From Acidimicrobiales bacterium (GTDB taxonomy: Bacteria > Actinomycetota > Acidimicrobiia > Acidimicrobiales > Poriferisodalaceae): 64,000 nucleotides of DNA. Position numbers and translations under genes: made by a program. The stretch covers positions 3,384,419 to 3,448,418 of the forward strand of contig OZ220472.1 of assembly GCA_965115995.1 (NCBI GenBank), written 5' to 3'. The notes beneath the pieces were generated by a model. That model searched no databases, had not been told where the DNA came from, and saw only the letters and a program-made list of their open reading frames with translations. Shown in pieces: positions 37,701-58,700 of this stretch (position 1 is the first letter of the stretch; each line of letters begins with the position of its first letter).

Positions 37701-40700
37701 ACTGTCACCACTGCTGCGACCGACTACCCGGCGAACATGTCGATCCCGCCGGTCGCGGTGACGGTGAGCGCACTGGCGTCGCTCACGCTGACTGAGGGAA
37801 CACCCGCGTCGCTGAGGCCTTTCGATCTCAGTTCGCAGCCGACGCGCGACGTGCATATCACGTTCAGGTCGCTGTCGCCCGAACTGGTGATGGTGAACAC
37901 CCCCGGCGGCACCGCAGCAGCAGCTCAGACGGTGACGTTCACGCCCGAACTGTGGAATGTTCTCCAGACCGTCGTCTTCGAACCCGCCGACGACAACGTA
38001 GACACGCCCGGCGGCATAAAGGCCACCGCGATCATCACTCGGTCGCTTTCGTCTGAAGACCCCCAATACGCCTCCATAACGCTCAGCGCTATTGGGGCGA
38101 CCATCCTCGACAACGACCCGACGGTGGCGAGCCTGGGCCGCAGCGACTCGGGCGCCATCGCCGAAGGCGGCAGCGGCACCGCGGCCGGTGCAGAGTTCAC
38201 GGTCACGCTGAGCCGTCCGCTGGTCGCGGGTGAGACGATCGAGGTGCCGCTGGTGGTCTCCGGTCCGGGAGTCGTCGCGGGCGATGTGGCCTTCGCCCTG
38301 TCGGGGAGCTCGAACCACGGCGTCACTGCGTCGGGCCTCACGAACTCGCTGGCGCCCACGGTGACGTTCGCCGGCGACGGGGTCAACACGGTGCAGACCG
38401 CCACTGTCACCATGACCGCGGTCGACGACTCCAGCGCCGAGGCGACCGAGTCGGTGACCGTCGCCCTCGGCCCCGACGGCGGCGCAGCGAACGGCTTCGA
38501 CTTGGCGGCACGGGCCACCAATGTGGCCGGCGGCGCCGACCCGCACTCCTCCAACAGCAGCTTCACGGTGAGCGTGACCGACAACGAGCCTGCCGCTGCT
38601 GCCGCCGACGCGGTATTCGACGCCGTGCCTGCCGATCTGGTGATCGCCGAGAACGCAGACGGTTCGACTACCGCGGTGAAGGTGGGCTCGCCGGTGACCG
38701 CTACCGACGTCAACGGCGACGCCGTCAGCTACACGCTCGAGGGCCGTTCCGGCGGGGCGGCCCCGACAGGGTTCGTGATCAACTCGGCCACCGGCCAGAT
38801 CTCCTATGAGGGCGCCGGACTCGACCGTGAGATCGCCGCCTCGGTTGCGATGACGGTGGTCGCCACCTCGGTGGGCGCCGACGGCTCGGCCACCGATGTG
38901 CGTCAGGACATCACGGTGACCGTGGCCGACGTCAACGAAGGCGCCGCCACCGTCACGGTGTCGGGCACCCCCATAGCCGGCCGCTCAACGGTGACCGGGT
39001 CGGTGTCGGGCGACCCCGAAGGCGACCCGGCCGCAGTGACGACCTACCAGTGGCAGATCGCTCGCCAACTCGGGGCCACTTGGCGGCTGGCGCCCGGCGA
39101 GGGTAAGTCCACCGCTTCCTATGAGGTGGCCGCCTCTGACGCTGGCCAGGTGCTGCGCATGGTGGCCATATACAACGACGGCGCCGGCAACCGCGAAGTC
39201 GTGGCCTCGACGCCGGTGCAGGTCGGGGTGCTGGCCGCGCTGAAGGCGACGGTCACCGTCACCGAGGCGCTTGCCAGCGACGCCGACCACACCAGCGACA
39301 AAGCCCTCGTCACCGTCACCTTGAGCGAGCCGCTGGTCGACGGCGAGAGCGTGCAGGTGCAGATCGACGTCGACGGCGGCGAGCCCCCCACCGATTACAC
39401 CGCGAAAAAGGGGCCGGGCATGCCTGCGACCGTGAACGCCTACGCGTTCGCGGAACGAGACGGGGACGGCACGGGCGGGATATCGGTCATCTTCCGCACT
39501 GACGGGGAGGTCCCCCCGACCACAGCCACAGTGGAAGTGTCCGCCACCACCGCCGCGGCGCTCAACAAGAAACTCGCCATCACCTCGCCGAGGCTGTTGA
39601 ACACCCACCGAAGCGCGTCGCTGGAGGGCACCGAGCTCACCGCGTCGCTGTCCGGCAGCCGTGTGCTGTTCACTGGCGAGCCCGCCCCTGTCCCGGTGAC
39701 CGTGACGTTGGCCCGCACCGACAGCGGCCCGATCACCGAGAACCCCAAAGCGAATGCCCCAGCGCGTGAGGCGACCTTCACGGTGACTCTGGGGCGGGCT
39801 TTGACCGCGAGCGAGCTGGTGGACGTGCCGCTGGTGCTGTCGGGCACCGACATCACCGCATCCGATGTGTCGCTGGCGTTGACGTCTGGTGAGGCCAACA
39901 CGGGCGTTTCGCTGTTGGAGGTTTCGTCGTTGGGGCCGGTGGTTCGCCTGTCGGGTGCGGGCGCTCGGGTGGCGGCTGTGTCGCTGTTCGCCTCGAACGA
40001 CGCGGTCGATGAGGACGCCGAGATGCTGACGGTCGGGTTGGGTGACCTGTCGGCGGAGAGCCTGGGCACACAAGTGGCCGCCGGTGCAGAGGCAGGGGCG
40101 GGCGCGAACTCGTTCGATGTGACCTTCAACGACGACGACACGGCGGGTTTGTCGCTGAACAACGTCGTGGTCGGCGCGCCGTTCAGCGTGGACGAGCCCT
40201 CCGGCACTGTGTCGGTGTCGGTCGCCTTGGAGTCGCAGCCGACCCATGATGTGACCGTCACGATCGCTAGCGGCGCGGCGTCGGCGCTGCTGGTGAGCAC
40301 CGGGGGCGGTCAACCGGCCGCATCGGTGCAGTTGACGTTCACTCCGACGAATGTGTCGAACGCGCAGACCGTCAAGTTGCACGCAGTCGACGACAGCGTG
40401 GTGAACGGGGGCGGGTCTCGTGCGGTGTCGGTGGGCTTCGCGGCGGCCAGCACCGACCCGAAGTATCAGGGCCTGTCGGAGTCGCTGTCGGTGAGAGTGC
40501 TCGACGACGATCAAGACGAGGAGCTGCCCCAGGTGCAGTTCACCAGCGACGCCTTCACCGCTTCGGAGGCTGCGGGCAGCCGGACCGCGACGGTGAGAGT
40601 GTTGCTGTCGCCGGCGCCGCAGGTCGACACGACGCTGCGGTACGCGACGTCCAGGTCCGCAACCGAAGGAGTCGACTACACGAAGCTGTCGCACAGGGTG

Positions 40701-43700
40701 TCGGTCCCGGCCGGGGCGACCACGGCGACGATCCCGGTCGTGGTGCTCGACGACGCAGTCGATGAGCCGCCCGAGACGATTGAGCTGGAGCTCAGCGCCA
40801 ACGACGACGACGGCTATCGGTTGGGCTCGACAGTGGTAACCACGGTCACGATCGTCGACGACGACGCCACCACCGTGAGCTTGGCGCGGTCCGGGGGCAG
40901 CGGCCCGATCCCCGAGGGCGGCACGGTGGATGTGACTGTGTCGCTGAGTCGTGATCTGGCCGTGGGCGAGACCGCGGCGGTGCGGATGCTGCTGGGCGGC
41001 GGCAGCGGTTTGGCCGCGTCAGATGTGACTGTGTCGTCTAAGGGGACGTACTGCTGTTTCTCGGTGGGGGCGGTGTCGGGCAGCGCCGGGAACCTGTACG
41101 CGGTCGTCACCTTCCACGAAGGGGCCCAAATCGTGGAGCTGACGCTGACCGCAGTCGACGACAACACCGATGAGACCGCGGCAGCCGATTCGGACTCGAT
41201 GACGGTGTCGTTGAGCCTCGCGAGCGCGGTGGCTGACGGCACGAACCTGGGCGGCGGGGTCGTAGCGGCCGACGACGGCGACCCTGCCACGGTCGACAAC
41301 AGCTTCGATGTGGAAGTCATCGACGATGATGGCACCGCGGGTGTGGTGGTGGCCGAGTCCGGCGGCGGCACCGCGGTGAGCGAGAACAACGCTGCGGCGA
41401 AGGGCGCGTCGGACACCTACACGGTGCGGCTGGCGACCGACCCGTCCGCGTCGGTGACGGTCACCGCGACGGCTTCGGGCGATGCGCAGGTGAGCGTCGG
41501 CGGCGGCGCGGCTGCTGCGTCGGCGCAGTTGACGTTCACGTCGTCGGACTGGTGGATGCCCCAGACGGTGACAGTGACCGCGGCGGCGTCCGCGAACGAC
41601 AGCACCGACAATGCGGGCTTCCGTTCGGGCAGCGTCGCGCACGCCGTGTCTGGCTACAGCACCGTGACGGCGGGACCTCAGGTGTCGGTGGACATCGTCG
41701 ATGACGAATCCACCACGGTGACTATCTCGGGCGACGGCGGGATGGTCGAGGGCTCGGGCGAGACGGTGGCGGTGACGGTGAGCTTGGGCCGGGCTTTGGC
41801 GGCTGACGAGGTGGTGGAGGTGCCGTTGTCGGTGTCGAGCAACACCGGCGCGGTTCTGGGCGGCCCGGCGAGGCTGTTGGAGCGCAGGCGCGCGCTGAAA
41901 TGGGCGGCGTCGGGCGACGGTGTGTCGCTGAAGGCAGATCGGTTGGCGAGTTCGGGGCCGTACAGGGCGCCGCTGGTGGTGCGCTTCGAAGGCGCAGGCG
42001 CGCAGAACGCGGTGATCACGTTCACCGCGGTGAACGGAGACGCCGACGACAAACGCGAGACGGTTCTCGTGCAGCTGCCTGCGACCGGGGCGGGGCTCAA
42101 CGCCGCTGCCCGCGGCACCAATGTGGGCGGCGGCCTGCGAACCGACGCCAGCGCGCACAGGCGGCGAGCCTCGATCACCTTGTTCGAACCGGACCAGCAG
42201 CGTGAGGCGTCGCTGTCCGTCTCGGGCGGCGGCACGGTCGCGGAGGGCGACTCGTTGACGGTGACGGTGACCCTCGACGACAATGCTCCGGCGAACCTGG
42301 AGATCCCGGTTCGGATGCGCACTTTGGGATTGCCGACCGCATCCAAAGCCGACTTCACGCTGTCCAACAACGGCATCGTGACGATCAGCAAGGATTCCAG
42401 GACAGGCACCATCACCCTCACCGCCAATACGGACAACATCACAGAGGGCGACGAGTTCCTGATCCTGGAGTTCGGGATCCTGCCCTCACCGGTCGTCGCA
42501 GCCGAACGCGGCGTCACCGCCAGGGTCACGATCACCGACGCCGCGGCGCCGGCCGATGTGGTGGTGTCGTGGTCGCAGACCGATGGCAGCGCGTTGCCGT
42601 CGGCGCCGAGGCTGGTGGAGGGCGACACCTACACGGTGAAGGTGTCGTTGGGCAGTGCTGCGCCTGCGGGCGGGGTGGTGATCCCGCTGGGGGTCGATCT
42701 CCTTACCGCAGAGGCGGCGGACTTGTCGATCCCAGCCGGCGTGGCCATCGCGGCGGGGCAGACGTCGGCGACGTTCGACGTGGAGTTCCTCGCCGACGAT
42801 CTGGTGGAGGACAACGAGCTGTTCAACGTGACGCTGTGCCCGGCGGCTTCGTGCCCGGCGGGCTACACCTCGGGTGATACGCCGCCGTTTATCGGCTTCA
42901 TCATCAAGGATCCGGGCATTGTGCTGGACGCCTCGGGGATCGCGTTCCTCCCCGACTCAACGGTCACGAAGTTGCTCGACGAGGGCGCCAGCGGCACATT
43001 GACCGTCGCCTTGGAGAGGGATCCGGTCGTCGACGCCACGGTCACTGTCCGGGTGATCGACGGCGACCAGAAGTCCAATTTCCAACAGTGGCTTGCTGCG
43101 ACCGAGACGGACTACATCGGGGTGGACACCGACCCCGACACTGCCGGCTTGCAGGACGAGTTGACGTTCACCGGCGGAGGTTCGGGCAACTGGAGTGTGC
43201 CGCAGACGGTTCGGGTGTATGCGCTGTATGACGATGACGCCGACACCGGTGTCCAGGATTACGACGAGTACACGGTCGGTTTGTTGAACCGCGCGGCGAG
43301 CGGCCCCTACAAGGCACAGGTCAATACCGTCGATGAGCACTTCTTGCTGCGGGTCGTCGACGCGGGCCACGAGGTGGTCGTGACGCCAACGGCGGTGTCG
43401 GTGGGCGAGGACGGCACGGTCGCCTATGAGGTGCAGCTCGCCAGCGATCCCGGCGGCACGGTGGTGGTGACGCCCACGTCGGGAGCGACGACCACCGCCA
43501 CGGTCAACCCCGTCACGTTGAGTTTCGACTCGTCGAACTGGAACGAGCCGCAGCAGGTGACCGTCACCGGAGTCGCTGGGGGGTCGGTGTCGGTCGCCCA
43601 CACGGTGACCACCGCGACCAGCGACTATCCGGCTGCTTTGTCGGCGCCTTCGGTGGACGTGACGGTGGAGGCTGCGTTTGCGCCGGTGGTGTCGTTCGGG

Positions 43701-46700
43701 TCTCCGTCGGGTGTGACGGTGAATGTGGTCGAGGGCGGTGTGGTGCGTTTGGGTGTGGTGTTGTCGGAGGCGGTGCCTGCGTTTGGTTCGTTGCCGGTGA
43801 GGTTCGAGGTGTCGGGGTCGGCGGCTGCGGGGACTGATTATGCGGCGTTGAGCGGCACGCTGGTGGTGGGGCCTGGGGAGTCGGGCGGCGAGATCGCGGT
43901 GCGGTCGATCAGCGACGTGTGGGTGGAGGGCGCCGAGACGGTGGTGGTGGCGCTGCTGGCGGGCGACGGGTACACGCTGGGCGCGGACAAGACCGCGACG
44001 GTGCGGATCGTCGATGACGACGCCCCGCCGGAGGTGTTGTTGAGCGCCGATGCCGCTGAGGTGTCCGAGGGCGGCGGCGCGGTTGATGTGACGGTGCGGG
44101 CGGAGCTGTCGGGCGTCTCGCGGTTCGAGTCCGATGTGGTGGTGACGGTGAGCGTTGCGGGTTCGGGTGTCGCCGGGGCGGTGGGGTTCGCGGAGGTGGC
44201 TGATTTCGATGTGACGATCCAGGGGGGCTGGTCGTTCGGCACCGAGACGTTCACGCTCACCCCCGAAGCCGACCAGGTCGACGAGCCGTCCGAGACGGTG
44301 ACCCTGTCGGCGTCGGGGGTGGCGCCTGCTGGTCTGGCGGTGTCGCCGGCGTCGTTGTCGATTTTGTTGGCCGATGACGATGCGACGGCGGTGCGGTTCG
44401 GTGGCGGCGGGTTCGTGTCGGAGGGCGATGCGTCGTCGTCGGCGGTGTTGAGTGTGTGGCTGGGCCGTGTGCTGGGCGCGGGCGAGTCGGTGGAGGTGCC
44501 GCTGGCGGTCACGGGTGTTGAGGCTGGCGATGTGGTGGTCGCGCAGCCTGCCGACGGGCGTGCGGGTGTGTCGGTGCGCGGCGGGGCGACGTTGGCGCCG
44601 GTGGTGGTGTTCACCGGTTCGGACGCGCAGGGTGTTTCGGTGGGGTTGGCGGAGCTGAACGTGACCGCCGGCGATGATGTCGACAAGGTCCATGAGGTCG
44701 CGGTGTTCGGTTTGGCGGATTCTGCGTCGACCGAGCCCGGCGGCGGTGTGGTGGTCGGGCCGGTGGGCGGCGGCGTTTCTGGGTCGGCGTCGGTGCAGTT
44801 GGTCGACGACGACGCAGACGCGGCGGCGGTTTTGGTGTGGCCGGGCTCGGTGGGTCTGGTCGAGGGCGACGCGGACGCCGGCTCGGCGGCCGTGCAGGTC
44901 CGGTTGAGCGAGCGGCCGGCCGGGAGTGTGTCGGTGTCGGCGGTGTCGTGGGATGTGTTGGCGGTGCGGGTGTCGCCCGCGTCGTTGGCGTTCAGCAGGT
45001 CTGATTGGGATGTGCCGCAGCCGGTGACGGTGACCGCGGTCGACGACTTGGACAGGACCGCCGAGTCGGTGACGGTGGCGTTCACCGCGGCGGGCCATGC
45101 GGCGGGGTCTGCGGGCGTGTCCGTGGACGATGATGTATCGAAGGCGCCGGTGTTGGCGGACGCTGTGTTCGCTGCGGTGCCTGATGATTTGGCGTTGGTG
45201 GAGAACGACCGGGGCCCGACCGATGTGGGCTCTGCGGTGACGGCGTCTGATTCCGACGGCGACACGGTCACGTATTCGTTGGAGGGCCCGTCGCGGGCGG
45301 CGCCGCCGGTCGGGTTCAAGATCGATTCTGCGACCGGCCAGATCTCTTATGGGCCGATACCCCATCGCCTCGGCGGGGCGACGCCGGCGCCGGGCGTGGA
45401 CCGCGAGGCCACGGCGCGGGTCGCGTTGGTGGTGGTGGCGACGTCGGTCGGCGCGGACGGCGCGGCGACGGCGGTGCGTCAGTCGGTGTCGGTGACGGTC
45501 ACCGACGTGGACGAGGGCGACGGCGAGGTCGTGGTCGCGGGTGTGCCGGTGGCGGGCCGCTCGGCGCTGACGGCTTCGGTGTCGGGCGATCCCGACGGCG
45601 ACCCGCAAGCAGCGTCGTCGTATGCGTGGGAGACGTCCGCGGACGGCAGCACCGGGTGGACGGCGGCGACCGGCGACGGTCACAGCACTGCTTCATATTC
45701 GGTGGCGGCCGCCGATGTGGGCCGGTATGTGCGTGTGACGGTGGGCTACACCGACGGCGGCGGCAACAGCGAGTCGGTCACCTCCGATGCGACGGCCCAG
45801 GTGGGGACGCTCAGTCTGTTGAACGCCGCAGTCCAGGTCACGTCTGCGCTGGGTTCTGGCGCGGACCACACCAGCGAGACCGCACAGATCGAGGTGTCGT
45901 TGGACGCGGCGGTGCTGGCCGGCGAGTCGGTGACGGTGCCGCTGAGCTTCACCGACGGCACGCAGGGCACCGATTACACGTTGACGCTGTCGGGTTCGCC
46001 GTCGGGAGTGGCACTGAGCGGCGCGTCGGTGGTGTTCACCGGCCCCGCCGCGTCCACCGCCACTGTGAAGGTGACTCCGGCGTCGGCTGTGGTGCTCGGC
46101 TCAAGGCTGACCGTCGCGCCGGGCACGGTGACGCTGACGGGCGCGTCGCTGGCCGGCACGACAGCCAAAGCCTCGCTGGTGGGCAACCCCAGGGTGTTCA
46201 CCGGCACCGGGCCGGTGACTGTGACGTTGGCCCGCACTGACAGCCGCAGCATCACCGAAGACCCCGAAGCGGCCGACGCGGCGCGTTCGGCGACGTTGAC
46301 GTTGACGTTGGGGCGGGTGCTGAAAGCGGGCGAGACGGTGGACGTGCCGCTGGCGCTGTCAGGCACCGACATTGCTGCGGCCGATGTGTCGCTGACGCTC
46401 ACGGCCGGTGAGGCGAACACTGGTGTGTCGTTGCGTGGTTTGTCGTCGCTTTCGCCGGTGGTGCGCCTCAACGGTGCGGGGGCGCAGGTGGCGGCGGTGT
46501 CGCTGTGGGCGTCGAACGACCCGATAGACGAGGACGCCGAGACGCTGACGGTCGCGTTGGGCGATCTGTCGGCGAACATTCTCGCTACGAACGTGGCCCA
46601 CGGCGCAGCAGCCGCCGCGGGCGCGAACTCGTTCGATGTGGTGATCGACGACGACGACACCGCTGCGCTGGAGACCGCTGTCGCGGGCGGTGTGCTGCGG

Positions 46701-49700
46701 GTGGCCGAGCCGTCGGGGACCGGCACGCTGCTGGTGGCGTTGGCGACCCAGCCCACCAGCAACGTGACGGTCACGGTGACCAGCGGCACCAGCTCGGCGC
46801 TGCTGGTCAGCACCGCGGGCGGCGCGAAGGCCGCTTCGGCGCAGTTGACGTTCACACCGGCGAATGCGCTGGTGTCCCAGCCGGTGACCGTGCACGCCGT
46901 CAACGACAACATCGACAACACCGGCGATGTGCGTGATGTGGCGGTGACAGTGTCGTCGTCGAGCAGCGACACCAAATATCAGGGCCCGACCGAGACGGTG
47001 AACGCGAAGGTGGCCGACGACGACCTGCCCGCGTCGACGCGGCCGCAGGTGCAGTTCACCAGCGCGACGCACACCGCCAGCGAGGCTGCGGGGGACCGGG
47101 CGGTGTCGCTGGCGTTGAGCGTGTCGCCGGCGCCGACTACGGCTGTGACCGTCCGCTACACGGTGACCGGCACCGCGTCATCAGGTAATGATTTCACGGC
47201 CTCGTCGGGCACCGTGGCCGTCGCGGCGGGCGCAACGACGGTGTCGATCCCGATACAGGTGCTCGACGACGCCGTCGATGAACCGTCTGAGACGGTCGTG
47301 TTCACCCTCGACGACAGCAGCGCCTACAGCTTGGGCTCGACCGCGGCGGCGACGGTGACGGTGGCCGACGACGACGCCACGGTGGTGCGTCTGGCGCGGG
47401 TCGACGGCGGCCCGATCGCCGAGGGCGAGACGACAGGCGACAAGGCCGACGCGGAGTTCACGGTGAAGCTGGGCCGGGCGCTGGCTGCGGGCGAGGTCGT
47501 CGAGGTGCCTTTGGTGCTGTCTGCGTTGAAGGGCTCGGGCAGCGATGTCACCGCCGCTGACGTGAACGTGGCGGCCAAGGCGGGCGGCACGCTCAACAAG
47601 GGTGTGGCGGTCGCGGCTGGCGCGTCGTTGGCGCCGACGGTGACGTTCACCGGTCACGCCACCGATGCGGTGCAGACCGCGACGCTGCTGCTGTCGTCGC
47701 CTGATGACAGTGTCAGCGAGTTCCAGGAGAAGGTCTCGGTCGCCCTCGGCCCCAACGACGCTACGGCGACCGGGTTCGGCCATTCCGGGAGGGCGACGAA
47801 CGCGGGCGGCGGCGCCGTTCCGCACCGCTCGGCCGGCTCGTTCAATGTGGCGGTGCTCGACGGCGCTGCGGTAACGGTGACGCTGTCGGGCGGCGGCGTG
47901 AACCTCGTGGAGGGTTCGGGCCAGACGGCGACGGTGACGGTCACGCTGGGCCGGGTCCTGGTGGCCGGCGAGGTGGTGGAGGTGCCGTTGACGGTGACGA
48001 GCTTCACTCAGGCGATCCTGTCGGGACCGGCCCGGTTGTTGGAGCGGATGCGGGCGCTGAAGTGGACAGCTTCGGGCACCGGGGTGACGCTCAAGGCGGA
48101 CCCGCTGGGCGGCGCGGGCCCCTACAAGGCGCCGCTGGTGGTGCGCTTCGACGGAGCCGGCGCCGGGACCGCGACGATCACGTTCACCGCGGTGAACGGC
48201 GACCGCGACAACAAAGACGAGACGGTGAAGGTGCTGGTGCCCCAGGGCGGGCTCAACGCGGCTGCCCGCAAGACCAATGTGGGCGGCGGCCTGGTGCGCA
48301 GCAGCCAGCAGCACGAGCAGCTGCGCAACATCTATCTGATCGAGCCAGGCAACGAGCTCGAAGCTTCGCTCGCCGTCTCCGGCGGCGGCACGGTCGCCGA
48401 GGGCGGCTCGTTGACGGTGACGGTCACGCTCGACAAGAACGCGTCGGACGATCTGAGCATTCCGGTTCGGATGCGCACCCTCGGCCTGCCCACCGCATCC
48501 AAAGACGACTTCACGCTGTCCAACAACGGCGTGGTCGCGATCAGCAGCGGCGCCAAGACAGGCACCATCACGTTCACCGCCAACGCTGACAGCATCGCAG
48601 AGCCAGACGAGTTCCTGATTCTCGAGTTCGGGATCCTGCCCTCGCCGGTCATCGCAGCCGAACGCGGCGTCACCACCAGGGTCACGATCACCGACGCCGA
48701 CGCGACCGACGGCGTGACCCTGTCTGAGGAGGCTCTCACCCTCACCGAGCTCGGCAGTGCCGGCACGGTCGAGAAGACCTACACGGTGGCGCTCGACACC
48801 GACCCGGGCGCGGACGTGACCGTCACCGTCGCCTCCGCCGACATGACGGCGGTAAAAGTGGACACCGACAGCGCCACGGCGGGCGACCAGTCCATGCTCA
48901 CCTTCACCCACGGCAACACCGGGAACTGGAACACGGCGCAGACGGTGACGCTGCGCGCTGTCAACGACGGCGACGCCGCAGCCGAGACCGTCACCGTCTC
49001 GCATGCCGCGGCGGCGGCCGATACCGACAGCCCTTACCACCAGATCGATATCGCAAACGTGTCTGTGACCACTGTCGACGCCGGCCACGGCGTGGTGGTG
49101 TCCAAGGTCGCCGTGTCGGTGTATGAGGACTCCACGGCCGTCTATGAGGTGCAGTTGGCGAGCGATCCGGGCGGGACGGTGGTGGTGACTCCCACGTCGT
49201 CGGCGACGACAACCGCGGCGGTGAGCCCCGTCACGTTGAGTTTCGACTCGTCGAACTGGAACGAGCCGCAGCCGGTGACGGTGTCTGGTGTGGCTGCGGG
49301 CACTGCGACGGTCACCCACGAGGTGACGACTGCGACGGCGGATTATCCGACCAGCATGTCGATCGCGTCGGTGGGTGTGAAGGTCGCCGCGGTGGTTGTG
49401 CCGGTGGTGTCGTTTGTGAACTCGAAGGACGTGTCGGTTGCGGTGGCGGAGCGTCTGGCTGGTGATGCGGCACGGCTGCGTGTCCGTTTGTCGGAGCCGG
49501 TGCCGAGGGACTCTTCGTTGTCGGTGGCTTATTCGGTGTCGGGCACCGCCGGCGCCGGAACCGACTACGCCGCGCTCAGCGGTGATTTGGTGCTGGGCCC
49601 GGGCACTTCGAGCGGCGAGATCGTGGTGCGCCCGATCGATGACGTGTGGGTGGAGGACGCCGAGTCGGTGGTGGTGACGCTGATGGCGGGCACCGGTTAC

Positions 49701-52700
49701 ACGCTGGGCGAGAACACTGTGGGGAAGGTGCAGATCAACGACGACGACGCGGCGCCGCAGGTGTCGTTGAGCACCGATGTCGTTGAGGTGCCTGAGGGCG
49801 GCGGCGCGGTTGATGTGACGGTGCGCGCGGAGCTGTCGAACCGGTCGCGCTATGAGTCCGATGTGGTGGTGACGGTGAGCGTTGCGGGTTCGGGTGTCGC
49901 CGGGGCGGTCGGCTTCGCGGAGGTCGACGATTTCGATGTGACGGTCCGGGCGGGCTGGTCGTTCGGGACGGCGACGTTCACGCTCACCCCCGAAGCCGAC
50001 CAAGTCGACGAGCCTTCCGAGACAGTGTCGCTGTCGCCGGTGGTGGTGTCGCCTGCGGGGTTGGCGGTGGCTCCGGCGTGGATTTTGTTGTCGGACGACG
50101 ATCCGACTGCGGCGCGGTTCAGCGGCGGCGGGTTCGCAGCCGAGGGCGATGCGTCGTCGTCGGCGACGGTGTTCGTGTGGCTGGGCCGCGCGCTGGGCGC
50201 GGGCGAGTCGTTGAGGGTGCCGCTGGCGGTCACCGGAACCGGTGTCGAGGCCGGCGATGTGGTGGTCGCGCAGCCTGCGGATGGGCGTGCGGGCGTATCG
50301 GTGGAGGGCGGCAACACGCTGGCGCCGGTGGTGGTGTTCACCGGCTCGGGCCAGCAGGGCGTGCAGGTGGACGCGGCGGAGCTGAAGGTGACCGCCGGCG
50401 ATGATGCCGACGAGGTCCATGAGGTCGCGGTGTTCGGTTTGGCGGATTCTGCGTCGACCGAGCCCGGCGGCGGTGTGGTGGTCGGGCCGGTGGGCGGCGG
50501 CGTTTCTGGGTCGGCGTCGGTGCAGTTGGCCGACGACGACGCAGACGCGGCGGCGGTTTTGGTGTGGCCGGGCTCGGTGGGTTTGGTGGAGGGCGACGCG
50601 GACGCCGGCTCGGCGGCCGTGCAGGTGCGCCTCGGCTCGCAGCCGAGCGGGAATGTGTCGGTGTCGGTGGTGTCGTGGGATGTGTTGGCGGTGCGGGTGT
50701 CGCCCGCGTCGTTGACGTTCACTAGGTCTGATTGGGATGTTCCGCAGCCGGTGACGGTGACCGCGGTCGACGATTTGGACCTCGACGACGAGTCGGTGAC
50801 GGTGGCGTTCACTGCGGCGGGCCATGCGGCGGGTTCGGCGGGTGTGTCCGTGGACGACGGGGTGTCGAGGGCGCCGGCGTTGGCGGACGCTGTGTTCGCC
50901 GCGGTGCCAGGTGATCTGGCGTTGGTGGAGAACGCGGATGGCTCGACTACGCCGATAGCGGTCGGCTCTCCGGTGACCGCGTCGGACGCCGACGGCGACA
51001 CGGTCACGTACTCGTTGGAGGGCCCGTCGCAGGCGGCTGCGCCGGCGGGCTTCGCCGTTGCCGAGGCGACCGGCCAGATCTCCTATTCGGGTACAGGGGT
51101 GGACCGCGAGGCCACGCCGCGGGTCGTGTTGGTGGTGGTGGCGACGTCGGTCGGCGCGGACGGCGCGGCGACGGCGGTGCGTCAGGCGGTGTCGGTGACG
51201 GTGAGCGATGTGGACGAGGGCGACGGCGAGGTCGTGGTTGCGGGTGTGCCGGTGGCGGGTCGTTCGGCGTTGACGGTGTCGGTGTCGGGCGATCCCGACG
51301 GCGACCCGCAAGCAGCGTCGTCGTATGCGTGGGAGACGTCCGCGAATGCGGGCGGGCCTTGGTCGGCGGCGACCGGCACAGGCGCCGGCACCGCTTCGTA
51401 TTCGGTGGCGGCCGCGGATGTGGGCCGGTATGTGCGTGTGACGGTGGGCTATGTCGACGGCGGCGGCAACGGCGAGTCGGTCATCTCCGAAGCGGTGGGT
51501 CCGGTGAGGACGCTCAGTCTGTTGAACGCCGCAGTCCAGGTCACGTCTGCGTTGGGTTCTGGCGCGGACCACACCAGCGAGACCGCACGGATCGAGGTGT
51601 CGTTGGACGCGGCGGTGCTGGCCGGCGAGTCGGTGACGGTGCCGCTGAGCTTCACCGGCGGCACGCTGGGCACTGATTTCACCCTGGCGCTGTCGGGTTC
51701 GCCGTCGGGAGTGGCGTTGTCGGGTGCGTCGGTGGTGTTCACCGGCCCCGCGGTGTCTAGAGCGACCGTTGAGGTGGCCCCGGCGTCGGCGGTGGCGCTC
51801 GGCGCCGAGTTGACCGTCGCGCCGGGCGTGGCCGCGGCGGCGGGAGCGTCTTTGGGCGGCACGACGGTGAAGGCGGCGCTGGTGGGTAACAGCAGAGTGT
51901 TCACCGGCGCCGGTCCGGTGACTGTGACGTTGGCCCGCGCTGACAGCCGCAGCATCACCGAAGACCCCGAAGCGGCCGACGCGGCGCGTTCGGCGACGTT
52001 GACGTTGACGTTGGGGCGGGTGCTGAAAGCGGGCGAGACGGTGGACGTGCCGCTTGTGCTGTCAGGCACCGACATTGCTGCGGCCGATGTGTCGCTGACG
52101 CTCACGACAGGGCAGCCGAACACTGGTGTGTCGTTGCGTGGTTTGTCGTCGCTGTCGCCGGTGGTGCGCCTGTCGGGTGCGGGGGCGCAGGTGGCGGCGG
52201 TGTCGCTGGGGGCGTCGAACGACCCGATAGACGAGGACGCCGAGACGGTGACCGTCGCGTTGGGTGATTTGTCGGCGAGCATTCTCGCAACGAACGTGGC
52301 CGGTGGCGCGTCCGCGGCGGCGGGCAGGAACTCGTTCGACGTGGTGATTACCGACGACGACACGGCTGGGCTGGCGACCGTTGTCGTGGGTGGTGTGCTG
52401 CGGGTGTCGGAGCCGTCGGGGACCGACACGCTGCTGGTGGCGTTGGCGACCCAGCCCACCAGGAATGTGACGGTGACGGTGACCAGCGGCGACTCGTCGG
52501 CGCTGCTGGTCAGCACCGCGGGCGGCGCGAAGGCCGCTTCGGCGCAGTTGACGTTCACACCGGCGAATGCGCTGGTGTCCCAGCCGGTGACCGTGCACGC
52601 CGTCAACGACAACATCGACAACACCGGCGATGTGCGTAATGTGACGGTGACGGTGTCGTCGTCGAGCAGCGACACCAAATATCAGGGTCTGTCCGAGTCG

Positions 52701-55700
52701 GTGGCCGCGAGGGTGGCCGACGACGACGGGCCTGCGTTGCCGCAGGTCCAGTTCGCCCAGGCGGCTTACACCGCCGGTGAGCCAGCCGGTGATCGGACAG
52801 TGTCGCTGGGGATGGGCGTGTCGCCGGCGCCGACCGGGTCGTTCACCGTCGCCTACACGGTGACCGGCACCGCTGCGACGGGCGACGATTTCGCGGTGCT
52901 GTCGGGCAGCGTGGCCGTCGCGGCCGGGGCGACGACCGTCACGATCCCGGTGACGGTGCTCGACGACACGGTCGACGAGCCGCCTGAGACGATCGTGGTG
53001 ACCCTCGACGACAGCAGCGCCTACCGGGTCGGCTCGACCGCGGCGGCGACGGTGACGGTCGCCGACGACGACGCCACGGTGGTGCGTCTGGCGCGGGTCG
53101 ACGGCGGCCCGATCTCCGAGGGCGAGACGACAGGCGACAAGGCCGACGCCGAGTTCACGGTGAAGCTGGGCCGGGCGCTGGCTGCGGGCGAGGTCGTCGA
53201 GGTGCCTTTGGTGCTGTCTGCGTTGAAGGGCTCGGGCAGCGACGTCACCGCCGCTGACGTGAACGTCGCGGCCAAGACGGGCGCGTCGATCAACGCCGGT
53301 GTGGCGGTCGGCGCTGGCGGGTCGTTGGCGCCGACGGTGACGTTCACCGGTCACGCCACCGATGCGGTGCAGACCGCGACGCTGCTGCTGTCGTCGCCCG
53401 ATGACAGCGACACGTCGGAGTTCCAGGAGAAGGTGACGGTCGCCCTCGGCCCCGACGACGCGACGGCGACCGGGTTCGGCCATTCCGGGAGGGCGACGAA
53501 CGCGGGCGGCGGCGCCGTTCCGCATCGTTCGGCCGGCTCGTTCGATGTGGCGGTGCTCGACGGAGCGCCGGTGGTGGTGACGTTGTCGGGCGGGGGCCGT
53601 TTGTTGGAGGGCTCCAAGAACAGCGTGACGGTGACCGTAGAGCTGGACCGGGCGTTGGCGGCCGGTGAGGTGGCGGAGGTGCCCGTCACGGTGCAGAGCC
53701 TGACCCAGTCGATCCTGTCGGGCCCGGCGCGGCTGTTGGAGCGGATGCGGGCGCTGAAGTGGACAGCGACGGGCACCGGGGTGACCATCGGGGCCGACCC
53801 GTTGACGAACTCGGGGCCGTACAAAGCGGCGCTGCTGGTGGTCTTCGACGGCGCCGGCGCGCAGACCGCTCAGATCGAGTTCACCGCCGTGAACGGCGAC
53901 GCGGACCGTTCCAACGAGCGGATAACGGTGCGGATCCCCTCCACTGGGAACGCGCTCAACGCGCCGGCCCGCAACACCAACCTCGCAGGCGGCCTGGCGG
54001 CGGGGAGCCCGTCTTTGGCCGCGGTCAACCTGTTCGAGCCCGGTAGCGAGCTCGAAGCCACCCTCGCAGTCGACAACAACGGACAAGTCGCAGAAGGCGG
54101 CTCGCTGACGGTCACCGTCACCCTCGACGCCAACACCGACACCGAGGTGGACATCCCGGTGCGGATGCGCACCTTGGGTTTGCCGACCGCGTCGGCAGCC
54201 GATTTCACGCTGTCGAACAGCGGCGTGGTCACCATCAGCAGCGGCACCAACCAGGGCACCGTCACCCTCACCGCCAACACCGACAGCGTCACCGAGGCCG
54301 ACGAATTCTTGATCCTCGAGTTCGGGAACCTGCCCGTCGGCATCGTCGCAGCCGACAGCGGCGTCACAGCCAAAGTCACCATCACCGACGTGCAAGAGGC
54401 GGCGAACAGTGCGCCGACGGTGGCGAATGAGATTCTTGACCAGAAGGCGACGCCGGGTGCGGCGTTCAGCTACGTCTTTGCGGCGAACACGTTCAGCGAC
54501 GCGGACGGCGACGCGTTGACTTACACCGCCGCTGAGTCCGACGACACCGCCCTGCCGACGTGGCTGACGTTCGACCCCGCCAACCGCGCGTTCTCGGGCA
54601 CGCCGCAGTCAGCCGATGTCGGGACGCTGTCGGTGAAGGTGACCGCGGACGACGGCAACGACGGCACGGTCTCGGACACGTTCGACGTTGTGGTGCAAGC
54701 CTCGGTGGTGGTGGTGTCGGCGCCGGTGCTGAACCTGGTCGAGGGCGGGAACTCGGTGGTGTACAACGTGGTGTTGCGGACGCCGCCGCCGGGCAGTGAT
54801 CCGGTTGTGGTCACGCCGCGCATCGACGATGCGGGGGTGGCGGATTTCGACGGTGCTGGGGCGGCGACGGGTCCGACGTTGAGGTTCGACGCGGCCAACT
54901 GGGACAATCCTCAGTTGGTGGTTGTGTACCCGACATCCGATGCTGGCGCCACCGCGAATGGCAGGGCGACGATCACGCACACTGTCACCGGTTACGGCGC
55001 GGTCACGTCAGCGCCTCTTGTCGTCGTGCACCTCGTGGAGAGGTCCGACTCTGCGGGGTTGGTCTTGTCTGAGGACTGGGTGATCGTGGAAGAGGGCGGC
55101 AGCGCGTCGGTGGCCGTACGGCTGGCGTCGGCCCCGGCCGGCGAGGTCACGGTTTCGGTGACCGGCGCGTCGGGCGGCCTGTCGGTGGACTCGGGCGGCG
55201 CGCTGGTCTTCGGCCCCGACGACTGGCATCTCTCCCAGGTTGTGACGGTCAGCGCCGCGGACGAGTCCGACGCCTCTGACACCGACGACGAGACGTTCAC
55301 GCTGGTGTTCACGGCGTCGGGCGGCGGTTACGGGCCGGTGAGCGAGTCGCTCGCCGTGTTCGTGTACGACGACGAGTTCGCCGGCCCGACGTTCACGGTG
55401 ACGGGCGCGGACGCGGTTGAGGGCACCACACCGGCGGTGTTCACGGTGACCGCAGACCAGACGTTGAGCACGGCGGTGGATGTGGCGTTGAATGTCTCTG
55501 AGTCGGGGCATTTCGTGGCGTCGTCCGACGAGGGCGAACAGACGGTGTCGTTCTCGGCCGCGCAGCTCACCCGCACTCACAGCGTGCCGATCGTCGACGA
55601 TGTGAACGCGGAGCCTTCGGGTGAGGTCACAGCGGAGTTGGCACCGGGCACCGGGTATCACATCGGCGTTCCGTCGGTGGCGACGTCGACGGTGACCGAT

Positions 55701-58700
55701 GATGATGCGGGCAGCACGCAGATGACGGTGTCGGTGGAGCGCACCGGTGCGGCCCACGTGAATGAGGGCACCGGCAATGTGGCGGGCGAGCCGATCGCGT
55801 TCGAGGTCACGTTGGGCAGGGCTTTGACGGCGGGCGAACGGGTCGATGTCGGGCTGGTCATCTCCGGGGCGGGGGTGACGGCGTCGGATTTCGCGGCGCT
55901 GGCGAAGACGGCGGGCAGGGATCTGAACACGGGTGTGAGCGTGGAGGCGGCGGGGTCGCTGGCGCCGACGGTGGTCTTCGCCGGCGAGGGCGCGCAGTCA
56001 GCGACGCTGGTGCTCGAGCCGATCGACGCGGTGCTCGAGACGCCGCGCAATGAGGTGGTGGCTGTGGCTCTGGCCAGCGCAGCGAGGCTGGGGGCGGACA
56101 GCGACACGAACGTGCCCGAGACGCTGGTCGTGGACTCGAGTGCCGATGAGTTCACCGCGACGGTGGTCGACGACGAGTACGAGCTGACGTTCACGCAGAA
56201 CTCGTTCACGGCGGCGGAGGGCGACGGGCCGGTGTCGGTCACGCTCGAGCTCTCGCGGGTGTTGACCCGGGACGTGCTGGTGGCGTTGACGCTCGACGAT
56301 GTGACCACAACAATCGACGATTGGGAGCTTGCGAACGACTCCACCGATCCGGTGACGATCCCCGCGGGCGAGCGGCGCGCCACTTTGGAGTTCTCGGTCG
56401 TCGATGACGATGTCATCGAGCCGACCGAGACGCTGCGGGTTCTGACGGATCCTCAGCATCGGCCTGCGGGCACGGTGTTGGATGTCGCCACGGTGCAGAT
56501 CGCTGACAACGACCCGACCGTGACGGTCACCGCAGCCTCGGAGGTGTTCGAGGGCGACGCGATCGACTTCACGGTGACACGCAACGCGGTGTATGCCGGG
56601 ACCGGTGACAGCAGGACGTCGAGTGCGTTGACGGTGAACGTGGCCGTGGCCGAGTCGGGTTCGACAGATTATGTGGCTGCCGGCGATGAGGGTCCCCGGC
56701 AGGTGACGATCCCGGCGAATGAGGCGTCGGTGACGTTCACGGTTGCCACGACGGGCAACAGCAGCGCTGACAGCGGTGCGAACACGGCGACGGCGACGGT
56801 TCAGGCGCCGACGACTGCGGCTGCCTACTTCGTGGCGGCGGGGTCGAAGGGGTCCGCCGTGGTGAGCGTTCTTGATGACGACGCTCCCGGCGTGACGGTC
56901 AGGCCGGTGTCGTTGCGTGTCTGGGAGCTCGACAACGGGTTGACGGACGACCATCGTGAGGACCAGGCGACCTATCAGGTGCGGTTGAGTTCGGCGCCCG
57001 GCGCGGGTGAGACGGTGACGGTCACCCCGACGAGCGGCGACACTGCTGCGGCGACGGTGGACCCGACAAGCCTCGATTTCACAGCGGCGAACTGGAAGGT
57101 CCCGCAAGTGTTCACGGTGACCGGCGTTGCCGACGCGACCGAGAGCGCGGGTCACCAGCGCACGGTGACCGTTACCCATGCGGTGAGCGCGTCGGGGTCG
57201 GGGAATTACGGGTCGGTGACGACAGGGCCTTCGGTGAGCGTGGATGTGATCGACGTGCCGGTGCTGTCGATCGCCAGCCCGAGCGTTACCGAGGGTGACA
57301 GCGGCACGACGGATTTGGTGTTCACGGTGACGTTGACGCCAGCGAGTCGGCGGACGGTGACGGTGGATTACCTGCGTTGGGATGCGCTCAGCACCACGGC
57401 ACCCGGTGTCGATCATGAGGCTGTGACGCCGGGGACGTTGACGTTCGCGCCTGGTGAGACGTCGAAGACGGTCACGGTGAAGGTGCTCGGCGATGTCGTC
57501 GTTGAGCCTGATGAGAATTTGGTGCTGTATCTGCGGGATCCGACGGTGGCGGTGTTGGACCCGGATGCGGTGGCGAGTATCGGCGATATCCGCAACGACG
57601 ACACTTCGGCGCCGCCGGTGCTGTCGATCGCCGGTAGCAGCACCGCAGAGGGTGACAGCGGTACCGCTGATTTGGTGTTCACGGTGACGTTGACGCCCGC
57701 GGCCAGCCGGACTGTGACAGTCGGTTACAGCCGCGGGGCTGTGAAGCTCACCCCCGCACAGGTCGCGGCCGGCCGGCGCGGCGCTACCGGTTCGGTGGAT
57801 TATGAGGCTTTCGTGGGGGGGACGCTGAGCTTCGCGGCGGGTGAGACGTCCAAGACGGTGACGGTGAAGGTGAAAGGAGATGTCGACGTCGAGCCTGATG
57901 AGTTGGTCGTGGTGGAACTGTCGGATCCGGTGCATGCGGTGATCGACCCGGCCGGCCAGAAAGCCGTCGGTGTGATCGCCAACGACGACGGCTTGCTGAG
58001 ACTGTCTGCGACGACGGCGACGATCGACGAGGTCGACGACTCTGCTACGCCGTCGGTGCGAGAGGACCAGGTCACGTTCACGGTGCAGTTGAGCGAGGCG
58101 CCCCAGGGCGGGGACGTGAAGGTGGCGGTCACCAGCGAGAGGCCTGTGGTGACGGTGAGCCCGAGGGAGCTGACGTTCGCCGCCGGCGACTGGAACGACC
58201 CGCAGACGGTCACGGTGAGCGCGGTCAACGACATCGTCGACAACTCCGGCGACGAGCGGACCGGGACCGTCAAGCTTGTGGCGTCGGGGGCGGGCACCGG
58301 CTTCGACGGCGCTGCGGCCAAGGTGCTCGTCGCGGTGACCGACGACGATGGCCCTCCGGTGCTGTCGGTTGATACCCCGACCGTGGAGGAGGGCGACAGC
58401 GGCACGACGGATCTGGAGTTCACGGTGACGTTGGACAGTCTCAGCGGCAACACCGTGACTGTGGACTACGCCGATTCCGGCAGCGGCACCGCCACCTCGG
58501 GCGCCAACGCCGACTACAAGCCGGTCACGGCGGGCACGGTGACGTTCAAGCCGAATGAGACATCGGTGACCGTCACAGTGACCGTCAACGGCGACACCAC
58601 CGCGGAACCCGACGAAGCCGTCGTGTTGAGCTTGTCGAACCCATCGAATGCCACGCTTGCAGGAGGCGGCGTCTCGCTGGTGGCGACCGGCACGATCCTC

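Follow-up and report, generated by a model that had tools for sequence, protein, structure and literature searches.

A repeated multi-domain cassette with mosaic sequence relationships in a giant Calx-beta gene of an Acidimicrobiales bacterium

The analysed stretch of 64,000 nucleotides, which we refer to as the window, is dominated by a single giant open reading frame (ORF) on the forward strand, whose frame contains no stop codon between 1572 and 64000 (Table 1). The length of this open frame (62.4 kb), a GC content of 87.6% at the third codon position (GC3) compared to 53.8% at the second and a dN/dS ratio of about 0.5 between its repeated segments identify the gene as coding. Its product starts with a signal-peptide-like segment at the N-terminus and contains at least 129 Calx-beta-like domains in addition to cadherin-like and He_PIG domains, as delineated in a map obtained with iterated hidden Markov models (HMMs). 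In comparisons with Pfam, each of four chunks of 5,000 residues scored 112–297 bits against Calx-beta (PF03160, E-values of 3e-39 to 1e-89 per chunk), which has a gathering cut-off of 27 bits, and further matches were obtained to Cadherin (3.8e-12) and He_PIG (1.5e-20). Two of the 12 Calx-like domains of the SR2 cassette described below pass the PF03160 cut-off individually (with 37.8 and 52.2 bits), the other ten being tied to the family by the iterated in-gene HMM only. Weak sequence matches in the PDB are to Calx-beta domains of Na/Ca exchangers. The protein carries a net charge of about –1663, with Asp accounting for 8.5% of its residues and an acidic triplet located at the end of 75 of the 129 Calx-like domains. 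Judged from this domain content alone, the strongly acidic product would be a secreted, probably Ca2+-binding fibre or adhesin-like protein. A match to the Pfam family LapA, at 21–22 bits, stays below the cut-off of 27 bits. The C-terminus of the protein lies beyond the window; in two related genes that include their 3' ends (L002 and L006), the LPXTG motif is absent and inspection of the C-termini did not reveal RTX-like Gly/Asp nonapeptides.

Embedded in the giant gene are at least four copies of a cassette of 5.0–5.7 kb encompassing about 14 domains, which we term SR1 to SR4. The unit is composed of 12 Calx-beta-like domains and a cadherin-like insert of 225 residues, corresponding in size to two domains, which follow each other in equal order in SR2 and SR3; the original prediction had spoken of ten modules. 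A core common to all four copies begins at 34387 in SR1, 43681 in SR2, about 49386 in SR3 and 61714 in SR4. Counterparts of the cadherin-like insert of SR2 are located at 35925–36584 (SR1), 50868–51515 (SR3) and 63228–63902 (SR4), with 78–85% amino acid identity among the four copies and a Pfam Cadherin E-value of 3.8e-12 for the one in SR1; the structure predicted for the insert is poor (pLDDT 50). In a comparison of the window with itself by blastn, SR1 and SR2 are related in several segments (34682–37348 with 43913–46567 at 81%, 39693–40920 with 46212–47427 at 71%, 41715–42543 with 47874–48699 at 78% and 33387–34473 with 42741–43767 at 71%), which includes a stretch of about 0.6 kb that both have in common on the 5' side of the cassette (33387–34062 and 42741–43355). 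The extra block of SR1 is missing in the related locus L003. The spacer between SR2 and SR3 has no counterpart on the 3' side of SR3, where 54390–54767 encodes a He_PIG domain instead. The block separating SR3 and SR4 does not find its best match in the collinear part of L003 but in L006, a second giant gene on the same metagenome-assembled chromosome as L003.

Table 1. Coordinates of features within the window. Equal signs connect identical tracts.
Feature	Position	Strand	Remarks
Giant ORF	1584–64000	+	>20,800 codons, runs past window end
SR1 cassette	34063–42543	+	longer copy, ~2.4 kb extra at 37211–39687
SR2 cassette	43356–48695	+	1,780 codons, 12 Calx-like domains and cadherin-like insert
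SR2 segment grouping with L003_b, not SR3	43356–44658	+	98–100% identical up to ~44440
Exact SR2 = SR3 tract, 117 nt	44686–44802 = 50413–50529		
SR2 cadherin-like insert, 225 aa	45141–45815	+	Pfam Cadherin E = 0.0025
Exact SR2 = SR3 tract, 115 nt	46237–46351 = 51940–52054		
Longest exact SR2 = SR3 tract, 141 nt	46794–46934 (= 52497–52637)	+	
Exact SR2 = SR3 tract, 92 nt	47454–47545 = 53151–53242		
Exact SR2 = SR3 tract, 78 nt	47624–47701 = 53321–53398		
SR2–SR3 spacer	48696–49073	+	126 codons, one Calx-like domain (aa 15716–15837)
SR3 cassette	49074–54389	+	1,772 codons, collinear with SR2
Exact SR3 = SR4 tract, 110 nt	50531–50640 = 62891–63000		
Exact SR3 = SR4 tract, 130 nt	50985–51114 (= 63345–63474)	+	
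He_PIG/Big_9 Ig domain	54411–54695	+	directly 3' of SR3, marks cassette 3' end
Non-cassette block between SR3 and SR4	55370–61384	+	best match L006
SR4 cassette, 5' part	61714–64000	+	window end cuts remainder

The original prediction had described SR2 and SR3 as a tandem, in-frame super-repeat with near-identical tracts, and this description holds in detail. The pair constitutes the top off-diagonal match of the self-comparison (43356–48696 with 49074–54390, 83.3% identity over 5,385 columns), and a codon alignment yields 79.8% amino acid and 84.1% nucleotide identity. Both copies begin in the frame of the giant ORF and are distinguished by 10 indels of 1–11 codons, all of them in frame, with the offset between the copies adopting values of 5718, 5727, 5721, 5736, 5703, 5697 and 5700, among them the four that had been proposed. 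There are exactly 8 mismatches in the 229 nucleotides of 46212–46440 and 51915–52143, the predicted perfect runs of 115, 92 and 78 nucleotides are exact, and two longer ones of 141 and 117 nucleotides were detected in addition. After permutation of the mismatch positions, the longest run averaged 42 nucleotides (95th percentile 56, maximum 81), and the observed runs are thus not a product of chance, those of 141, 117 and 115 nucleotides surpassing even the maximum. Conversely, the module near 43680 is more diverged, as had been anticipated, with an identity of only 64% in 43656–43805. The similarity of the two cassettes also far exceeds that between unrelated repeats of the same fold, since positional partners are 60–91% identical at the amino acid level, compared to a median of 22.5% (99th percentile 48%) for pairs among the 129 Calx-like domains, a median of 23% for adjacent domains and at most 39% for domains within one cassette. 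SR2 and SR3 do not form a special pair, however, as SR4 also contains near-identical tracts with each of them (Table 1), including 94–97% identity to SR2 over 44442–45160.

The divergence of SR2 and SR3 at synonymous sites varies 25-fold along the unit, with dS ranging from 0.04 to 1.05 in windows of 60 codons. This heterogeneity bears on the possibility that the near-identical tracts would reflect strong purifying selection on certain domains, such as those containing Ca2+ or ligand sites, without any exchange of DNA. Although the peaks of identity do return in some of the same domains across several copies, the synonymous sites within the tracts are equally identical (dS of 0.04–0.08 compared to 0.4–1.05 elsewhere), exact runs of 115–141 nucleotides each span about 40–47 third codon positions and the dN/dS in the tracts is no lower than the 0.26–0.5 found in the diverged parts. 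We thus regard selection on the protein as an extremely improbable cause of the pattern.

In their relationship to other genomes, the cassettes reveal a mosaic organization. The closest relatives of the giant gene are found in metagenome-assembled genomes (MAGs) of Acidimicrobiia. Between 43356 and 44440, SR2 is 98–100% identical to L003_b, its orthologous cassette in one of these relatives, but only 65–89% identical to SR3, and informative sites in the bins from 43356 to 44615 group SR2 with L003_b in 252 cases and with SR3 in 12. Further along the unit, the identity to L003_b drops to 59–82% while that to SR3 climbs from 65–81% to 83–98%. The patterns of informative sites in the triplet (535/477/285) switch sharply near 44658, an inferred recombination breakpoint inside a domain, with a maximum chi-square of 356 compared to a null maximum of 17. 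At the other end of the unit, the tail of SR3 is 89.6% identical to the contig L002 but 82.6% to SR2. When painted in tiles of 150 nucleotides, the unit has as its nearest neighbour at times a paralog and at times one of four different relatives. L003_b, too, is a patchwork, and a GENECONV-like permutation test of runs of matching polymorphic sites is significant for many pairs (P<0.001). The direction of gene conversion is resolvable for a single tract. The window and the loci of the relatives have no housekeeping gene in common, and the patches of 97–100% identity would reflect either the genomic background or recent lateral exchange.

These relationships separate the two origins that had been proposed for the repeat, a recent segmental duplication or ongoing homogenisation. 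The latter is supported by the heterogeneous dS, by exact tracts beyond all permutations, by the runs of matching sites and by the switch in site patterns. A simple and recent tandem duplication of 5.7 kb, after which the two copies diverged independently, would account for the adjacent, collinear and in-frame arrangement of SR2 and SR3 and for their status as the most similar pair of cassettes (84% compared to 72–80% for other pairs). It is nevertheless very unlikely in light of the 25-fold range of dS, the abrupt breakpoint and the tracts linking SR4 to both copies, and since the head of SR2 and the tail of SR3 are each closer to a sequence of another genome than to their counterpart in the other copy, the split between them has to predate the separation of these genomes.

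The number of cassettes differs between related genomes, with one located upstream of the SR4 position in L004, two in L003, where the region 17170–24120 does not contain any, and three in the window. The expected variability in copy number is thus found between related genomes and may extend to strains. The cassette L004_a consists of an SR1-like head fused to an SR2-like tail, and as an independent example of exchange the two cassettes of L004 share an exact tract of 1,617 nucleotides between flanks of 76–96% identity. SR4 is 96% identical to L003_c. A further diverged cassette is located in L015, and another relative, L005, is titled as Ca. Aldehydirespiratoraceae (Acidimicrobiia).

In principle, an assembly artefact could underlie the mosaic and perhaps also the number of copies, if paths had been switched at shared identical tracts between strains or paralogous cassettes to produce a chimeric consensus. 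According to their titles, the window and all of its relatives are derived from metagenomes, patches of 150–1000 nucleotides are on the scale of path switches in graph assemblers and the frame breaks in L001 and L003 point to imperfect assemblies. In contrast, the frame of the window is unbroken across 62.4 kb, a similar mosaic is present in five independent assemblies, three of which are titled as chromosomes, and the switching between trees involves copies from different samples. Moreover, the difference between SR2 and SR3 at 16% of sites, with exact repeats of at most 141 nucleotides, rules out a falsely duplicated collapse, and for the same reason the locus would be less prone to mis-assembly from short reads than had been supposed. 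Together, these observations make an artefact improbable.

We thus consider it likely that the repeat belongs to an old family of cassettes that is subject to patchy gene conversion and unequal recombination inside one adhesin-like gene. Collinear in-frame units on the same strand, heterogeneity of dS, identical tracts beyond chance length, phylogenetic incongruence of segments once orthologs of other genomes are included and a difference in copy number between related genomes, as found here, are the features by which intragenic duplication of cassettes with gene conversion is recognized. In such a process, homologous recombination between direct repeats, presumably by a RecA-type mechanism, would move short patches from cassette to cassette by non-allelic gene conversion, with tracts that measure tens to hundreds of nucleotides in the window and 1.6 kb in a relative, while unequal crossing-over would now and then add, delete or fuse whole cassettes. 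Selection would retain only in-frame products. Such a process would account for the mosaic, in which near-identical stretches lie next to strongly diverged ones, and for cassette numbers and orders that differ among related genomes. Single copies are indeed closer to cassettes of other genomes than to those within the same gene. We have also considered the target of a diversity-generating retroelement, which was rejected since the mismatch spectrum is symmetric, with A present at 19% of mismatches in SR2 and at 18% in SR3. The giant ORF takes up the window from 1584 onwards, and no reverse transcriptase was found in the two upstream stretches viewed (the small ORF at 578–1129 and the minus strand at the 5' end), which cover part of the first 1.5 kb.

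Within the protein, the cassettes would serve as extender modules that are stiffened by Ca2+ and determine the length of a surface adhesin. It is conceivable, but in our judgement unlikely, that the cassettes of this gene and those of a second giant paralog elsewhere in the genome form a recombining pool, which continuously generates variants in mosaic and length in a symbiont population, akin to antigenic variation, with mosaicism being selected for and not merely arising from the presence of repeats. If so, a host-associated and possibly sponge-associated actinobacterium might in this way evade host recognition, phagocytosis or the adsorption of phages.

The swapping of short patches between copies is ordinary for repetitive surface-protein genes, whereas its scale is unusually large in the present case. 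Gram-positive surface proteins such as Alp/Rib, SasG and Esp contain in-frame direct repeats encoding Ig-like extender domains, which are homogenised and varied in number by homologous recombination. The giant gene shares these properties, but in the Gram-positive proteins the repeats are single domains of about 80–130 residues that are nearly 100% identical, whereas here the unit is a cassette of about 14 domains and 5.3 kb, with copies that are 72–84% identical and contain identical patches. The giant RTX adhesins LapA, MpIBP and SiiE, which are type-1-secreted proteins of Gram-negative bacteria with a C-terminal RTX signal, similarly consist of long chains of Ig-like beta-sandwich extenders with acidic Ca2+-binding linkers. 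The present protein resembles them in its very long Ig-like chain and in a probable role in projecting an adhesive tip off the cell, but differs by its N-terminal signal-peptide-like segment and its actinobacterial lineage, with its C-terminus located outside the window. In titin and nebulin, which are eukaryotic, exon-based and intracellular, blocks of several mutually diverged domains constitute the repeating unit, and a comparable higher-order periodicity of Ig-like blocks, in which neighbouring domains are thus dissimilar, is found here without implying homology. A close parallel in process is provided by Giant1–5 of the host-associated bacterium Apilactobacillus kunkeei, five genes for surface proteins of 3,000–8,000 residues with recombination mosaics (PMC12863079). 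In both systems, short intragenic recombination tracts dominate the diversity of very large genes, dS is highly heterogeneous and the trees of segments are incongruent; however, Giant1–5 contain alpha-solenoid folds, and no recent gene conversion between these paralogs was reported (PMC12863079), whereas the Calx-beta fold prevails here and exchange proceeds among cassettes of one protein of more than 20,800 residues and, as it appears, also with the second giant gene.

The locus does not define a new principle but offers a clean and quantified illustration of the way in which a bacterial gene exceeding 20,000 codons is constructed and retains its variability, with a block of about 14 dissimilar Ig-like domains as duplication unit that is probably reshuffled within and between genomes by conversion patches and unequal crossing-over. 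For such giant genes, the number and order of cassettes in short-read MAGs should not be trusted, and trees based on orthology or values of average nucleotide identity are meaningless. In the sections of PMC11706023 considered here, symbiotic Acidimicrobiia are described as enriched in Calx-beta and cadherin proteins, and the 'eukaryote-like proteins' of its sponge symbionts are of the same taxon and the same domain classes as the present protein. These sections tally domain families per genome and do not mention giant genes, cassettes or recombination (PMC11706023). Such domain counts may thus mostly reflect a few giant, fast-rearranging genes.

The window has a G+C content of 68.7% and contains a single open frame on the plus strand, which spans from position 1572 to the last base and likely starts with the ATG at 1584/1587. 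Its G+C by codon position of 65/54/88% identifies this giant frame as coding. The encoded protein begins with a basic stretch followed by the hydrophobic MMVVTSDATRTGRLRRFGSASLAVLLVASVLTVVPLG..., an N-terminal segment that looks like a signal peptide, and no Pfam family was found in its first 189 residues. Pfam searches assign Calx-beta to every 5,000-residue chunk of the protein (112-297 bits), together with Cadherin and He_PIG domains. By iterating an HMM inside the protein, we delimited 129 Calx-beta-like domains, with about 20 intervening gaps of 200-450 residues that contain other Ig-like domains. The protein is very acidic, with Asp constituting 8.5% of its residues and a net charge of about -1663, and an acidic triplet is located at the end of 75 of the 129 domains. 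In the linkers of Calx-beta and cadherin proteins, triplets of this type are known to form Ca2+ sites.

Embedded in this frame are at least four cassette copies, SR1-SR4, in which each unit combines 12 Calx-like domains with an insert of 225 residues, whose match to Cadherin ranges from weak (E = 0.0025 in SR2) to good (3.8e-12 in the SR1 copy). A structure of this insert predicted by AlphaFold2, with an alignment consisting only of the four window copies, is all-beta and, at a pLDDT of 50.2, unreliable, and a PDB sequence search with SR2 retrieved only weak matches to Na/Ca-exchanger Calx-beta domains (E ~2e-4). The core present in all four copies begins near 34387, 43681, 49386 and 61714; the first domain is common to SR1-3, and SR1 and SR2 also match over another 0.6 kb upstream. 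Within one unit, the best partner of a domain is no more than 29-39% identical to it, and the median identity of adjacent domains in the whole protein is 23%. Within the extra segment of SR1, the stretch 38604-39400 is a diverged copy (65-69%) of the cassette's cadherin-like part, with counterparts at 35925-36748 and 50883-51479. Further internal repeats of the giant gene include a module of about 660 nt found five times at 71-79% (8246-8910, 9734-10401, 24234-24890, 32117-32748 and 59958-60623), a tandem pair (22868-23546 vs 23546-24221, 74%) and a 1.4-kb pair (23864-25296 vs 31721-33186, 69%).

Off the diagonal, the best match of the window to itself aligns SR2 (43356-48696) with SR3 (49074-54390) at 83.3% identity over 5,385 columns, which establishes the predicted tandem pair as real. 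Both copies begin in frame and encompass 1,780 and 1,772 codons. In a protein-guided codon alignment, they are 79.8% identical at the amino-acid and 84.1% at the nucleotide level and are separated by ten indels, all of which are in frame since they measure 1-11 codons each; the resulting offsets of 5718, 5727, 5721, 5736, 5703, 5697 and 5700 include all four of the original prediction. Its hand count of 8 mismatches in 229 nt (46212-46440 vs 51915-52143) was exact and its perfect runs of 115, 92 and 78 nt were recovered at their positions, together with two longer ones of 141 and 117 nt that had been overlooked. Upon permutation of the mismatch positions, the longest run had a mean of 42 and never exceeded 81, and the exact runs are thus not the product of chance. 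The similarity of the pair is also far above that of unrelated Calx-beta repeats, with positional partner domains being 60-91% identical compared to a median of 22.5% and a 99th percentile of 48% among all pairs of the 129 domains.

We found no near-identical match to the unit in the protein database. The best matches, P0001 (64% over half the unit) and P0019, are encoded on the contigs of loci L001 and L002, the former extended by L015, and a scan of genomes contributed L003 to L006, each from an Acidimicrobiia MAG. In JGI metagenomes, neither a protein-pattern scan nor an exact 22-mer scan detected a relative, the six loci retrieved by the latter being otherwise dissimilar to the window. In a published comparison, Calx-beta and cadherin proteins are described as enriched in sponge-symbiotic Acidimicrobiia (PMC11706023).

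Cassette copies of the window and of its relatives, 14 in all, were aligned and compared in 180-nt windows. Between 43356 and about 44440, SR2 matches L003_b, its positional ortholog in OZ219922.1, at 98-100% identity and SR3 at only 65-89%, whereas 3' of this position its identity to L003_b drops to 59-82% and that to SR3 climbs to 83-98%. Of the informative sites in the triplet SR2/SR3/L003_b, 535 group SR2 with SR3, 477 SR2 with L003_b and 285 SR3 with L003_b. A single-breakpoint test yielded a maximum chi-square of 356, whereas no value above 17 arose among 500 permutations, and placed the breakpoint at about 44658, within a domain and not at a domain boundary. At 45156-45335, the grouping of SR3 with L003_b is backed by 30 sites against 2 and 6, and SR3 is there 97.8% identical to SR4. 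Elsewhere, the tail of SR3 is 89.6% identical to L002, compared to 82.6% for SR2, and its stretch 49430-49790 is 94-97% identical to the L004 cassette L004_b. L003_b is itself a patchwork, with seven changes of its nearest neighbour along the unit. Synonymous divergence between SR2 and SR3 varies along the unit: in windows of 60 codons, dS lies between 0.04 and 1.05 (0.28 overall, with a dN of 0.14). Conservation driven by constraint, which could in principle account for near-identical tracts, is contradicted by this variation at synonymous sites, and the tracts thus do not originate from constraint at the protein level. The cassette comparison, the breakpoint test and the variation in dS together contradict a simple recent duplication, one of the two origins that had been proposed. 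Conversely, the other, homogenisation, was supported by a GENECONV-like permutation test, in which many pairs, SR2-SR3 among them, reached P<0.001 over 2,828 polymorphic columns, and since SR3 and SR4 share exact tracts of 130 and 110 nt, it is not limited to the tandem pair. DGR-type mutagenesis was excluded by the symmetric mismatch spectrum of SR2 and SR3.

Painting of the 32-64 kb part of the window in tiles of 150 nt by identity to other copies extends these observations (table), and to judge from such comparisons the mosaic is one that runs across the whole gene and across genomes. Chimeric assembly could have generated both a tandem pair and shared patches. It is an unlikely explanation for the pair, since 16% of sites distinguish SR2 from SR3, their longest exact match is 141 nt and both reside in an intact 62-kb frame, and it is likewise unlikely to account for the recurrence of this pattern in five independent assemblies. 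The two cassettes of L004 have in common an exact tract of 1,617 nt (14713-16329 = 23233-24849, verified by direct string extension) between flanks of 76-96% identity, which is apparently an independent and very recent conversion or else a polishing or assembly artefact of that record.

Coordinates of cassettes, exact runs and painted tiles in the window, and records of related loci
Feature	Position or record	Description
SR1	about 34063-42543	~2.4 kb extra at 37211-39687
One-domain spacer	48696-49073	between SR2 and SR3
He_PIG/Big_9 domain	54411-54695	directly after SR3
SR4	starts 61714	cut by window end
Exact SR2/SR3 run	46794-46934 = 52497-52637	141 nt
Exact SR2/SR3 run	44686-44802 = 50413-50529	117 nt
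Painted tiles	41151-44450	97-100% identical to L003
Painted tiles	45801-47800	patches 93-99% identical to SR3
Painted tiles	49401-49700	96-99% identical to L004
Painted tiles	52701-54300	90-96% identical to L002
Painted tiles	57801-60900	94-98% identical to L006
Painted tiles	61401-64000	93-100% identical to L003
L003 and L006	OZ219922.1	two separate loci
L004	OZ219763.1	
L005	OZ243951.1	titled Ca. Aldehydirespiratoraceae

The predicted variability in copy number is manifested between related genomes, as the window, L003 and L004 differ in the number and order of their cassettes. Collinearity of L003 with the window holds through SR1 and SR2; then come 7 kb (17170-24120) that contain no cassette and share no nucleotide similarity with the window, after which L003 picks up again at the position of SR4 with 96% identity. 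The extra segment of SR1 is missing from this otherwise collinear locus. L004 contains one cassette before the SR4 position, with an SR1-like head (86%) and an SR2-like tail (78%), as would be expected from unequal exchange. In L005 and L001/L015, the same building blocks are found, yet in other arrangements. Between SR3 and SR4, the block 55370-61384 is not matched at the nucleotide level by the collinear part of L003 and instead resembles 2110-8121 of L006 (84% overall, with patches of 94-98%), a second giant gene encoded on the other strand of the same chromosome at a distance of 190 kb. This resemblance suggests an exchange between paralogous giant genes, in which the block would have been replaced by sequence from the paralog.

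The repeats, their mosaic structure, the incongruence, the pattern at synonymous sites and the differing cassette numbers are direct observations. As the mechanism behind them, we infer homologous (RecA-type) recombination between direct repeats harbouring identical stretches of 78-141 nt, and of 1.6 kb in L004, which would yield both gene conversion and unequal crossing-over, with out-of-frame products being removed by selection. In light of its domain content and its likeness to Ca2+-dependent giant adhesins, the protein may form a long, Ca2+-stiffened extracellular fibre, to which cassettes would mainly add length and surface diversity. It is tempting to speculate that, when some 14 dissimilar domains are duplicated as one block, similar domains remain well separated along the chain, which would fit the low identity between neighbours.

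Variation in repeat number is well established for Gram-positive surface proteins. Giant genes have been noted in Actinobacteriota (bioRxiv 10.1101/2023.11.21.568195), and recombination mosaics are known from giant surface-protein genes such as Giant1-5 of A. kunkeei (PMC12863079). Less usual is the scale of the window gene, with more than 20,800 codons and a unit of about 14 domains in at least four copies, and the probable exchange with a second giant gene.

Unlike the intact frame of the window, the giant genes of relatives are frame-shifted, with that of L001 divided into pieces of 11,623, 2,732, 376, 1,026 and 3,781 residues and that of L003 changing frame near L003:1007, which may reflect sequencing errors or pseudogenisation. 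In L002 (7900-8437 and 8595-9572), the related gene terminates in a long low-complexity stretch rich in Asp, Thr and Gln and a distinct, roughly 90-residue C-terminal domain with a Cys at both ends, and is followed by a gene encoding an AAA_21 domain. While the C-terminus of the giant protein itself falls beyond the window, no LPXTG motif was found at the ends of the related genes in L002 and L006. Upstream of the giant frame, a run of 14 G at 1356-1369 is located in the intergenic region about 215 nt ahead of the ATG and could either serve phase variation by slipped-strand mispairing or reflect a sequencing problem at the homopolymer; a promoter scan of positions 1-1800 returned nothing, including any sigma-70-like promoter near this run. 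The preceding small ORF on the plus strand (578-1129, 183 residues, no Pfam match) has a GTG start with GGGAGG 5 nt upstream. It encodes about ten imperfect 11-residue repeats of the type EREADLAxRAA followed by a hydrophobic C-terminal segment, and contains a direct DNA repeat (774-888 / 904-1020) of 92% identity.
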